Source: Escherichia coli (lineage in GTDB: Bacteria; Pseudomonadota; Gammaproteobacteria; Enterobacterales; Enterobacteriaceae). Taken from it: DNA of 64,000 nucleotides. Below are positions 38,422 through 40,462 of the stretch, one piece after another. The stretch lies in assembly GCF_044324875.1 (NCBI RefSeq), contig NZ_CP172185.1, one strand, 5' to 3'. The position numbers and the translations under genes are program-made. Below the pieces are notes generated by a model. It was not told where the DNA came from. It made no database searches and saw only the letters and a program-made list of their open reading frames with translations. Position 1 is the stretch's first letter; each line of letters opens with the position of its first letter.

Positions 38422-39003
<582 letters not shown>

Positions 39004-39107
39004 TGATTTCTCGCGCGGGCAATCTTGCCCGCGCTTCTGCTCTCCCGGCGTAACCCGGATTTGCCGCTTATACTTGTGGCAAATGGACACGTTCAGGGAG
39101 GCATCAA

Positions 39108-39275
39108 GTGAAGAAACTCACCGATAAGCAAAAGTCCCGTCTCTGGGAGTTTCAGCGTAATCGTAATTTCCAGGCCAGTCGCCGTCTTGAAGGCGTCGAG
39201 ATGCCTTTAGTCACTCTTACTGCCGCAGAGGCTTTAGCGCGACTTGAAGAGCTGAGGAGGCACTATGAGCGATAA
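39108..39275 (+). CDS. yhfG: YhfG, small protein overlapping fic (Fic inhibitor / antitoxin-like)
   Basis: Below the track cut-off; GTG start at 39108; my translation is [55 protein letters not shown]; stop overlaps the fic start by 11 nt. Confidence 0.75.
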
Positions 39276-39867
39276 ATTCGGCGAAGGGCGCGATCCGTAT
39301 CTTTATCCTGGCCTTGATATCATGCGTAACCGGCTGAACATCCGCCAGCAACAACGGCTGGAACAGGCCGCTTACGAAATGACGGCGCTACGTGCTGCGA
39401 CCATTGAGCTTGGTCCGCTGGTGCGCGGTTTACCGCATTTGCGCACTATCCATCGCCAGCTGTATCAGGATATTTTCGACTGGGCGGGGCAACTGCGTGA
39501 AGTTGATATTTATCAGGGTGATACGCCGTTCTGCCACTTTGCTTATATCGAAAAAGAGGGCAATGCCCTGATGCAGGATCTGGAGGAAGACGGTTATCTG
39601 GTTGGCCTGGATAAAGCGAAGTTCGTCGAGCGGCTGGCGCATTACTATTGTGAAATCAACGTGCTGCATCCCTTCCGTGTGGGAAGCGGACTGGCACAGC
39701 GGATCTTCTTCGAGCAGCTGGCGATTCATGCGGGCTACCAACTGAGCTGGCAGGGTATCGAAAAAGAGGCCTGGAATCAGGCAAATCAGAGTGGGGCAAT
39801 GGGGGATCTCACCGCGCTGCAGATGATATTTAGCAAAGTGGTAAGCGAAGCCGGGGAATCTGAGTAA
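39265..39867 (+). CDS. fic: Fic-domain protein (cell filamentation protein)
   Basis: 200-aa ORF; Fic-like core [12 protein letters not shown], which is degenerate relative to the canonical HPFx(D/E)GNGRxxR. Confidence 0.9.
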
Positions 39868-39898
39868 AATAGCGCGGTTCTTTCGTACCGGAGCCGCC

Positions 39899-40462
39899 AT
39901 GATCCTGCTTATTGATAACTACGATTCTTTTACCTGGAACCTCTACCAGTACTTTTGTGAACTGGGGGCGGATGTGCTGGTTAAGCGCAACGATGCGTTG
40001 ACGCTGGCGGATATCGATGCCCTTAAACCACAAAAAATTGTCATCTCACCCGGACCCTGTACGCCAGATGAAGCCGGGATCTCCCTTGACGTTATTCGCA
40101 ACTATGCCGGGTGCTTGCCGATTCTTGGCGTCTGCCTCGGTCATCAGGCAATGGCGCAGGCATTTGGCGGCAAAGTTGTGCGCGCCGCAAAGGTCATGCA
40201 CGGCAAAACCTCGCCGATTACACATAACGGTGAGGGCGTATTTCGGGGGCTGGCAAATCCACTTACCGTGACACGCTACCATTCGCTGGTGGTGGAACCT
40301 GACTCATTACCAGCGTGCTTTGAAGTGACGGCCTGGAGCGAAACCCGCGAGATTATGGGGATTCGCCATCGCCAGTGGGATCTGGAAGGCGTGCAGTTCC
40401 ATCCAGAAAGTATTCTCAGCGAACAAGGACATCAACTGCTGGCTAATTTCCTGCATCGCTGA
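39899..40462 (+). CDS. pabA: Aminodeoxychorismate synthase glutamine-amidotransferase subunit
   Basis: 187-aa class I amidotransferase ORF with catalytic Cys (GVCLGHQ). Confidence 0.93.

Follow-up and report, generated by a model that had tools for sequence, protein, structure and literature searches.

The yhfG-fic locus of Escherichia coli raises the question of what a Fic protein does when its signature loop has departed from that of canonical AMPylating members of the family and an inhibitor-like partner is nevertheless still encoded beside it. The locus considered here lies in a 64,000-nt stretch of E. coli DNA (hereafter, the window) and is almost certainly ecficA-ecficT, the class I Fic module that Enterobacteriaceae carry on the chromosome and inherit vertically, for which the same gene names, yhfG and fic, are used in the annotation of K-12. 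Of 5426 complete E. coli genomes, 5425 carry the locus, and its DNA is 100% identical to that of E. coli NZ_AP022261.1.

Identity of the gene pair and its inhibition motif

The coding features of the pair are the following:

39108-39275, + strand: yhfG (= ecficA), GTG start, 55 codons, 55 aa; class I Fic inhibitor protein
39177-39194, + strand: SRRLEG codons, at the end of the alpha-inh helix of YhfG
39265-39275, + strand: overlap of the yhfG stop with the fic start (ATGAGCGATAA), 11 nt
39265-39867, + strand: fic (= ecficT), ATG start, 200 codons, 200 aa; FIC-domain protein
39427-39429, + strand: G55 codon of fic (GGT), changed in the historical filamentation allele fic-1 (G55R) described in PMC5033356; wild type here
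39667-39702, + strand: codons of the degenerate FIC signature loop, Fic residues 135-146

The start of yhfG at 39108 is the earliest possible one after the upstream stop, and its product is 96% identical to PDB 5JFF chain B, matches the Pfam family YhfG (PF10832, E = 1.8e-24) and passes the cut-off of NCBIfam NF007573 (127.8 bits, cut-off 77). On the strength of these family matches, the PDB chains 5JFF_B and 5JFZ_B, and a dN/dS of 0.03-0.09 against four genera, yhfG is a real gene and not a chance open reading frame. Similarly, Fic is 98.5% identical to PDB 5JFZ chain A and carries a FIC domain at residues 58-152 (Pfam PF02661, Fic/DOC, E = 1.1e-13); it passes the equivalog model NCBIfam NF007672 for the putative AMP-protein transferase Fic (428.1 bits, cut-off 181) and fails the equivalog model NF045983 for the type II toxin-antitoxin adenylyltransferase VbhT (138.3 bits, cut-off 800). 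The structures 5JFF and 5JFZ are those of the YhfG-Fic complex and are matched at E = 1e-132 for Fic and 1e-29 for YhfG. EcFicT and EcFicA of K-12 (Fic P20605 with YhfG) represent the same locus in another strain, with identical gene order, overlap, motifs and pocket residues; the differences are confined to strain-level substitutions (H27R, E109D and E115D in Fic; L15F and S51R in YhfG), none of which falls at a position marked as functional in PMC5033356.

The arrangement is that of class I, or FicTA, in the Engel 2012 classification as summarised in PMC5033356: a separate small inhibitor with an (S/T)xxxE(G/N) motif is encoded upstream, and yhfG ends 11 nt inside fic. The first-pass annotation had already noted both the 11-nt overlap of the 55-codon yhfG with the fic start and the fit of SRRLEG to this motif, and the two are read directly from the sequence, the motif at YhfG residues 24-29. 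It had also taken YhfG for an antitoxin-like inhibitor, which agrees with published work: YhfG (EcFicA) and Fic (EcFicT) form a tight 1:1 complex in which SRRLEG, at the end of the first YhfG helix, reaches into the active site of Fic, and in 5JFF the residues S24 and E28 of YhfG bind R146 of Fic, with YhfG R25 contacting T40 (PMC5033356). The latch residues E28 and R146 are both present here, the contact itself being seen in 5JFF between proteins that are 96-98.5% identical to the present ones (PMC5033356). Across five genera the inhibition motif reads SR[RL]LEG.

The signature loop and the missing AMPylation

Residues 135-146 of Fic align without gaps, column for column, with HPFREGNGRxxR in phmmer comparisons to Fic-1 (PDB 8WT0, HPFREGNGRAQR) and VbhT (PDB 3ZCB/3SHG, HPFREGNGRTLR). 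The loop retains H135 (catalytic), F137 (structural), G140, G142 and R146 (R2, its last arginine), and it departs from the canonical AMPylating motif at three positions, the D/E being replaced by V139, the N by S141 and R1 by L143. No second HxF...G...R motif was found in the whole of Fic, and the idea of a canonical motif elsewhere in the protein is rejected, since there is a single signature loop with a gap-free alignment to the canonical one. The earlier statement that the acidic residue, the Asn and the first Arg are all replaced is thereby upheld, as is the identification of the motif by alignment to characterised Fic proteins.

Two of the lost residues have assigned roles in canonical Fic enzymes, R1 as the ligand of the ATP beta-phosphate and the acidic residue as that of Mg2+ (PMC5033356). 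As related in PMC5033356 with reference to Harms 2015, no auto- or target AMPylation by EcFicT was detected, even with a mutated inhibition motif; the E28G antitoxin mutant likewise revealed no activity (PMC5033356), and an independent group found EcFic to be without AMPylation of E. coli GyrB or ParE (PMC7479194). These published negatives bear out the first-pass argument from the motif against standard AMPylation, and the authors of PMC5033356 themselves attributed the missing AMPylation to the loss of R1, the acidic residue and the Asn. Moreover, no growth defect of a fic deletion is reported in the introduction of that paper, and the mechanism of Fic was still called elusive in 2026 (PMC13327609). 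Stanger et al. 2016 (PMC5033356) thus already describe how SRRLEG latches R146, give the three changes in the motif, report the lack of AMPylation and propose an unknown substrate; the observation made on the present sequence is correct and not new, because the pair, its inhibition motif, the degenerate loop, the interaction, the missing AMPylation and the crystal structures belong to the 2016 literature.

The same authors defined an EcFicT-like subgroup 3 by the replacement of R1 with a small or medium hydrophobic residue, a hydrophobic residue at the acidic position, the A36/T40/Y67/F71 pocket, and a DPY sequence with R0 retained. All of its residues are present in Fic (L143, V139, A36, T40, Y67, F71, D10-P11-Y12 and R138), and its translation also contains E79 and Y83, which Stanger et al. 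name as further pocket residues. The 120 close homologues of Fic show this pattern as well.

Related systems show how differently such a fold may be used. VbhT/VbhA of Bartonella schoenbuchensis (PDB 3SHG, 3ZC7, 3ZCB) is likewise class I, with a separate upstream inhibitor, the same fold and a Ser/Glu latch on R2; VbhT, about 33% identical to EcFicT (PMC5033356), differs in being a toxic, plasmid-encoded protein with the canonical motif HPFREGNGRTLR that AMPylates GyrB and ParE, and VbhA has three helices whereas YhfG has two. Fic-1/AntF of Pseudomonas bijieensis 2P24 (PDB 8WT0; PMC13327609) aligns with Fic over its full length (E = 7.5e-49), and AntF uses S24 and E28 to contact R146 of Fic-1, all three being numbered as in YhfG and Fic. 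Unlike Fic, however, Fic-1 has the motif HPFREGNGRAQR and AMPylates GyrB at Y111, and the complex it forms with AntF is a metal-dependent deAMPylase (PMC13327609). Phage P1 Doc/Phd and Legionella AnkX are FIC folds with altered motifs and other chemistries, phosphorylation by Doc and phosphocholination by AnkX (PMC5033356, introduction); their motif variants are other ones and their substrates are known. The likeness is one of functional analogy only.

Genomic setting, expression signals and selection

The pair is flanked by ppiA (38431-39003) and pabA (39899-40462), a syntenic position that also characterises subgroup 3, and the order tsgA-ppiA-yhfG-fic-pabA-argD-yhfK, together with the geometry of the 11-nt overlap, is the same in Salmonella, Klebsiella, Citrobacter and Leclercia. 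Horizontal acquisition, or residence on an island, is rejected in view of the ordinary local G+C, the tRNA-free window and a housekeeping gene order identical in five genera. No tRNA lies within the 64-kb window, and no Rfam family of structured RNA reaches its gathering score there. The following noncoding and signal features accompany the genes:

39013-39034, + strand: terminator-like hairpin of ppiA (GCGCGGGC-AATCTT-GCCCGCGC), separating ppiA from the yhfG-fic unit
39062-39079, + strand: conserved block TGCCGCTTATACTTGTGG, invariant at 17 of 18 positions across nine enterobacterial genomes, the exception being C/T at 39065
39069-39074, + strand: putative -10 hexamer TATACT of a sigma-S-dependent fic promoter, assigned by sequence match
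39096-39101, + strand: Shine-Dalgarno of yhfG, GGGAGG, 6 nt upstream of the GTG; AGGGAGG invariant in nine genomes
39254-39260, + strand: Shine-Dalgarno of fic, GAGGAGG, within the yhfG coding sequence and 4 nt upstream of the fic ATG
39868-39898, + strand: fic-pabA spacer, 31 nt, containing the pabA Shine-Dalgarno GGAG; conserved in five genera

The stem of the ppiA hairpin keeps its pairing through compensatory changes in the nine-genome alignment (e.g., CACACGGGC...GCCCGTGT and GCGCGAGTA...TACTCGCGC), and it was missed by a simple terminator scan on account of its weak T-run. A generic sigma-70 promoter scan upstream of yhfG likewise returned nothing, and the TATACT block is known from the cross-genus alignment and from the literature. 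The -10 of the fic promoter is given as TATACT (Utsumi 1993, as tabulated in PMC5650638), and in E. coli EDL933 the pair figures among the RpoS-dependent genes (PMC2907692); we infer from the matching hexamer that 39069-39074 is the -10 of this published sigma-S promoter. The frame of fic is +1 relative to yhfG, with 157 nt from start to start, and AGGAG(G/T)CACTATGAGCGATAA at the fic start is common to five genera. Translational coupling of yhfG and fic is implied by this geometry and would fit the constancy of the 11-nt overlap across five genera. Downstream, the scan found no terminator-like site in the fic-pabA spacer, and such a terminator-free spacer suggests that pabA is probably co-transcribed with fic.

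Both genes are under strong purifying selection. Against four other genera, dN/dS amounts to 0.047-0.088 for fic and 0.028-0.088 for yhfG, as compared with 0.045-0.076 for the neighbouring pabA. Among 120 close homologues of Fic (at least 79% identity), His135, both anion-nest glycines and R2 are invariant, and the variant motif reads HPFR[LIVF]G[SN]G[LMI][AV]QR except in the singletons HPFCLGSGLAQR and HPFRLGCGLAQR. The canonical motif, on the other hand, occurs in 117 of 150 Fic representatives (50% clustering), the degenerate form being found only in the EcFicT cluster and in a few further ones. Decay of the motif, or a pseudogene, is rejected on two counts, the fixation of the variant in the 120 homologues and the dN/dS of 0.05-0.09 of fic. 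A variant motif that is fixed across genera, combined with purifying selection on both genes, argues for changed function and not decay. As a result, of the "different or lost activity" that the first-pass annotation had left side by side, a different activity is favoured, given the fixed motif and a dN/dS like that of pabA, and a lost one is less so.

Possible functions of YhfG-Fic and the natural fusions

The conserved variant motif, the purifying selection and the intact pocket residues of the subgroup indicate that Fic is kept for some function rather than decaying. On balance, and with restrained confidence, Fic appears to be a working enzyme or a ligand-binding protein whose pocket may have been reshaped to take a substrate that bears phosphate but is not ATP. 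This pocket would be a hydrophobic groove of A36, F71 and V139 edged by Y67 and T40; the protein would act on a target mainly in stationary phase, with YhfG gating access to R146. Doc and AnkX offer a precedent for such a remodelled Fic active site. To our knowledge, however, the acidic metal-binding residue is used by nearly all characterised Fic transferases, and its loss in Fic counts against the enzyme reading.

It is unlikely, though hardly negligible, that Fic is instead a catalytically dead pseudoenzyme, which the cell keeps together with YhfG for binding or scaffolding, for example to sequester a partner in stationary phase, and that the R146 latch merely stabilises the heterodimer. 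No Fic activity has ever been detected (PMC5033356, PMC7479194), three substrate-binding residues are gone, and E28G lowers the stability of the complex by 10 °C, which points to a structural role of the Glu-Arg contact (PMC5033356); purifying selection on fic fits a non-catalytic binding role equally well. A pure scaffold, however, would have no need of the invariant His135, glycines and R2 in 120 homologues, nor of the many conserved subgroup-specific residues that line the pocket beside the signature loop. More doubtful is the proposal that the complex acts as a dedicated eraser, stripping a modified protein of AMP or a similar group by hydrolysis, with the "inhibitory" Glu as the catalytic residue. 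We know of no core-genome Fic of E. coli whose AMPylation would supply such an eraser with its substrate. The proposal would explain why the YhfG partner is kept despite the loss of forward AMPylation; the closest canonical relative with a structure, the Fic-1-AntF complex (8WT0), is a deAMPylase that needs AntF E28 (PMC13327609), and His135, R146, S24 and E28 are all retained, R1 as the binder of the ATP beta-phosphate being dispensable for hydrolysis. Nevertheless, of the negatively charged cleft formed in that complex by Fic-1 E29, E36 and E139 with AntF E28, only the E28 of YhfG is retained, the Fic positions being Q29, A36 and V139 in the alignment, which weakens the deAMPylase idea; the Fic-1-AntF reaction moreover requires a divalent metal (PMC13327609), and Fic is without the acidic metal-binding residue of the motif.

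Two further readings place the pair among conflict systems. A role as an anti-phage defence pair is highly improbable: Fic does match the PADLOC candidate system PDC-S04 (model PDLC04838, E = 4.3e-75), but this is only a candidate family defined on general Fic-domain proteins, YhfG has no PADLOC match, the neighbours ppiA, pabA and argD are housekeeping genes with no defence island, and presence in essentially every E. coli with cross-genus synteny is not the pattern of a defence system. Scarcely credible is the reading as a FicTA type II toxin-antitoxin module of the conventional kind, in which degradation of YhfG would allow Fic to AMPylate GyrB or ParE and to stop growth. Its layout, in which a short gene for the inhibitor lies upstream and overlaps the start of the next one, and its SxxxEG motif are indeed those of VbhA-VbhT, some copies bear the RefSeq name "FicA/YhfG family antitoxin", and a 2024 review states that ectopic EcFicT strongly inhibits the growth of E. 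coli (PMC10886550). That toxicity statement comes from a secondary source, however, and conflicts with the same group's later summary of no activity (PMC5033356); AMPylation was absent in the hands of two laboratories (PMC5033356, PMC7479194), R1, the acidic residue and the Asn are lost, the VbhT equivalog model scores 138 bits against 800, and inheritance is strictly vertical and syntenic, unlike that of mobile toxin-antitoxin modules.

Lineages of Enterobacter and Buttiauxella encode YhfG and Fic as one protein, the two genes having been joined in frame at least twice; WP_120065544.1 is one of these natural single-chain proteins. One case comprises 194-aa proteins of Enterobacter huaxiensis and E. 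hormaechei, and the other 199-200-aa proteins of Buttiauxella, Dryocola and Scandinavium. The fused proteins keep the YhfG helix with a Ser and an acidic residue (SCLLEK, SxxLD[VI]), and their genes are under purifying selection (dN/dS 0.075 and 0.10). A single-chain YhfG-Fic cannot operate through the degradation of a separate antitoxin, and the joining of the genes into one frame at least twice hints at a reading put forward here only tentatively: YhfG may be a permanent subunit of a two-chain enzyme, not a releasable antitoxin, and the enzyme may perform an undescribed Fic chemistry on a non-ATP, partly hydrophobic phospho-substrate. The new-substrate part of this reading is an already published hypothesis. 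A search with poorly chosen terms found no published argument from YhfG-Fic fusions, and the word "fusion" is absent from Stanger 2016, so that the fusions may already be reported.

Fic is the founding member of the Fic family, and after about 40 years its real activity is still the interesting question, one that is no more testable through the present 64,000-nt stretch than before. The only fresh material is the fused YhfG-Fic, which could furnish single-chain reagents for ligand screening and may help to decide whether the inhibitor helix works as a switch or belongs permanently to the enzyme.

The yhfG-fic locus and its expression signals

The gene pair in the window is, with near certainty, the E. 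coli locus that Stanger, Harms, Dehio and Schirmer named ecficA-ecficT (PLoS One 2016, PMC5033356). The top PDB matches are 5JFZ and 5JFF (E ~1e-133 for Fic and ~1e-29 for YhfG), titled 'Probable adenosine monophosphate-protein transferase fic' with 'Uncharacterized protein YhfG'; the same genes are annotated at the locus in the K-12 record, relative to which the Fic of the window carries H27R, E109D and E115D, and its YhfG carries L15F and S51R. The proteins fall into the Pfam families PF02661 (Fic) and PF10832 (YhfG) and exceed by wide margins the cut-offs of the NCBIfam equivalogs NF007672 (Fic) and NF007573 (YhfG), while the VbhT equivalog model of NCBIfam is not reached by Fic (138 bits vs a cut-off of 800).

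Features of the yhfG-fic region, with reading frames and motif codons read from the sequence
39013-39034, + strand: hairpin 3' of ppiA, with a stem that covaries across nine genomes
39062-39079, + strand: 18-nt block TGCYGCTTATACTTGTGG, invariant in nine genomes but for one C/T position
39096-39101, + strand: Shine-Dalgarno GGGAGG of yhfG, 6 nt 5' of the GTG
39108-39275, + strand: yhfG, GTG start, 55 codons
39177-39194, + strand: SRRLEG codons, YhfG residues 24-29
39254-39260, + strand: Shine-Dalgarno GAGGAGG of fic, within yhfG, 4 nt 5' of the fic ATG
39265-39275, + strand: yhfG/fic overlap, 11 nt common to both ORFs
39265-39867, + strand: fic, ATG start, 200 codons
39667-39702, + strand: degenerate FIC loop codons, Fic residues 135-146

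The 11-nt overlap and the SRRLEG motif had both been claimed in the first-pass annotation, and every item of its observation on the pair is correct when read against the sequence. In the ppiA-yhfG spacer, aligned from nine genomes, AGGGAGG ahead of yhfG is invariant, and the 18-nt block contains TATACT, the same hexamer as the -10 of the sigma-S-dependent fic promoter in the table of PMC5650638 (after Utsumi 1993); this conserved block was missed by a generic promoter scan of the window. The pair yhfG-fic is listed among the RpoS-dependent genes of E. coli O157:H7 (PMC2907692). Downstream, transcription likely reads through from fic into pabA, because a scan of the 31-nt spacer between them revealed no terminator-like site.

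The 2-kb ppiA-to-pabA stretch is 100% identical to that of E. coli NZ_AP022261.1 and is carried on the chromosome, in single copy, by 5425 of the 5426 complete genomes of E. coli; one genome of this set has no match to the locus at all. In NZ_CP146670.1 (E. coli MS 21-1), the match covers only window positions 38431-39500, ends within fic at about codon 79 and resumes at a second place, and fic seems to be interrupted there. The order tsgA(-), ppiA, yhfG, fic, pabA, argD, yhfK(-) is common to loci of Salmonella, Klebsiella, Citrobacter and Leclercia, in which yhfG (55 codons), fic (200 codons) and the 11-nt overlap are also as in the window. Nei-Gojobori dN/dS between the window and these four loci, approximate because synonymous sites are near saturation, is 0.047-0.088 for fic, 0.028-0.088 for yhfG, 0.045-0.076 for pabA and 0.023-0.032 for ppiA. 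The window has an even G+C of 47-56%, with no tRNA genes in its 64,000 nt and no Rfam families at gathering threshold (1-64000), and is in keeping with ordinary core chromosome of E. coli.

The signature loop of Fic

Fic-1 of Pseudomonas bijieensis and VbhT of Bartonella are proven AMPylases. Using phmmer with Fic as the query against all PDB chains, full-length alignments without gaps around the signature loop were obtained to Fic-1 (8WT0, loop HPFREGNGRAQR) and VbhT (3ZCB/3SHG, loop HPFREGNGRTLR), in which the acidic residue, the Asn and the first Arg (R1) of the canonical loop are replaced in Fic by V139, S141 and L143, and H135, F137, G140, G142 and R146 (R2) are retained. The loss of these three residues, as first described, is thereby upheld, and the comparison with characterised Fic proteins that had been set beforehand finds the loop correctly identified. 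A misidentified motif, or a canonical one elsewhere, is ruled out by the gap-free alignment and by the absence of a second candidate FIC motif in the whole protein.

Among the 120 nearest homologues (identity 79-99%; Escherichia, Salmonella, Citrobacter, Klebsiella, Leclercia and others), all but two singletons, each one position off, carry HPFR[LIVF]G[SN]G[LMI][AV]QR; the H, the F, both G and R2 never vary, a hydrophobic residue always stands at the acidic position and at R1, and N alternates with S. In a wider census of the best 150 representatives from a library clustered at 50% identity, the canonical HxFx[DE]GNGRxxR was found in 117, 24 were fragments without the loop, and nine had variant loops; six of the nine belong to the EcFicT cluster and fragments of it, and the others are P0122, P0191 and P0219. 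The degenerate loop is thus essentially confined to one lineage.

Two database proteins stand apart. P0219 (511 aa) is an unrelated, longer Fic protein with a long C-terminal extension, whose loop reads HPFRRGNGLAIR, R1 having become Leu and the acidic residue Arg by independent loss. P0129 (212 aa, 47% identical to Fic) has many residues swapped for C, F, L, V, W or Y, the pattern expected from C-to-T converted (bisulfite-like or damaged) reads; this entry of the public collection is probably artefactual.

Activity of Fic and the role of YhfG

EcFicT and EcFicA associate in a stable 1:1 complex, solved in two crystal structures, in which R146 is bound by S24 and E28 of EcFicA (PMC5033356); for these near-identical proteins, a heterodimer is published in which the end of YhfG helix 1 fills the active site and keeps R146 engaged, with no AMP transfer. 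An independent group found no modification of E. coli GyrB or ParE by EcFic (b3361) with radioactive ATP (PMC7479194). These assays and the motif losses agree with the earlier argument against standard AMPylation, and the interpretation first given to the pair is supported. Most of the checks set beforehand, namely the alignment, the nucleotide-transfer assays and the interaction, are already in print, and the finding is known; the locus is a textbook case with solved structures. As late as 2026 the mechanism of EcFicT is called elusive (PMC13327609); what EcFicT does is a real question, and the finding does not advance its answer.

As for the 'different or lost activity' first proposed, the low dN/dS, approximate in value and clear in direction, argues for a function that is changed or at least retained, and simple loss is disfavoured. 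The mechanistic reading that we hold to be somewhat the better bet is that YhfG and Fic would be made in fixed proportion through coupled translation from a stationary-phase promoter; that the catalytic centre of Fic (His135, the glycine anion nest and R146) would be kept and its nucleotide-binding side rebuilt as a hydrophobic groove, for which reason a different phosphate-containing donor is probably used on a putative target; and that access would be controlled by YhfG.

A non-catalytic pseudoenzyme, which is unlikely, would fit the absence of any detected Fic activity but would leave the invariance of the catalytic His, both glycines and R2 unexplained. Less probable still is a de-modifying 'eraser' complex modelled on Fic-1 and its partner AntF: retention of a Glu-bearing partner would be accounted for, yet the acidic cleft of Fic-1 (E29, E36, E139) is Q29, A36 and V139 in the window Fic, and the Fic-1-AntF reaction is metal-dependent, although the metal-binding acidic residue is gone here. 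It is very improbable that the pair serves anti-phage defence, as suggested by a generic match of Fic (39265-39864) to the PADLOC candidate family PDC-S04 (E = 4.3e-75), its sole support; no PADLOC model matches YhfG, and the core-genome, housekeeping context is unlike a defence island. A classical gyrase-AMPylating toxin is scarcely credible, being contradicted by the two negative assays and by the Fic motif; in its favour, a 2024 review reports E. coli growth to be strongly inhibited by ectopic EcFicT (PMC10886550), at odds with the lack of detectable activity in PMC5033356.

Natural single-chain YhfG-Fic proteins

P0122 (Buttiauxella izardii WP_120065544.1) has the same length as Fic; its first ~30 residues are the YhfG N-terminus, and the Fic part follows from about residue 35-40. 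A second search yielded 41 fused YhfG-Fic clusters among its 120 best relatives, in three types, with the YhfG model found at the N-terminus by Pfam (precomputed) and NCBIfam.

Types of fused YhfG-Fic proteins
Type A: 194 aa; Enterobacter huaxiensis, E. hormaechei; inhibitor motif SCLLEK; Fic loop HPFMSGNG[IV][SA]QR
Type B: 199-200 aa; Buttiauxella, Dryocola, Scandinavium; inhibitor motif SxxLD[VI]; Fic loop HPF[FL][VI]GSGRAQR
Type C: 195 aa; single metagenomic sequence; inhibitor motif SYSLDP; Fic loop HPFRSGNGLALR

The fused gene lies between ppiA and pabA, without a separate yhfG, in four loci of other genomes (L006 1011-1613; L008 2501-3103; L007 2501-3085; L009 2501-3085). In the window, the start of fic lies 157 nt from that of yhfG (157 mod 3 = 1), and by exactly this length the fused gene of type B falls short of the yhfG-fic span; one deletion of 157 nt takes out the junction and at the same time restores a single frame. 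The fused genes are under purifying selection, with overall dN/dS of 0.075 and 0.103 and, for the part derived from YhfG, of 0.098 and 0.043. In a neighbour-joining distance tree of the Fic core, quick rather than rigorous, type B groups with unfused relatives (93% bootstrap) and type A forms a clade (100%) placed elsewhere, which suggests that the fusion arose independently at least twice. Type A matches the Enterobacter 'subgroup 2' of Stanger et al. (PMC5033356), which has a 'distinctive N-terminal region', is shorter by five residues, lacks the DPY motif, has an R0 other than Arg and is not called a fusion there.

Two E. coli-like proteins, P0001 (252 aa) and P0005 (233 aa), are 99% identical to Fic and carry the YhfG and Fic Pfam domains in one chain nearly as long as the two proteins combined; the overlapping genes have probably been joined there by a frameshift or by an error of assembly.

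The natural single-chain proteins retain the inhibitor helix even though, as part of the same chain, it can no longer act as an antitoxin that is separate and degradable; this bears only indirectly on the question of what EcFicT does.
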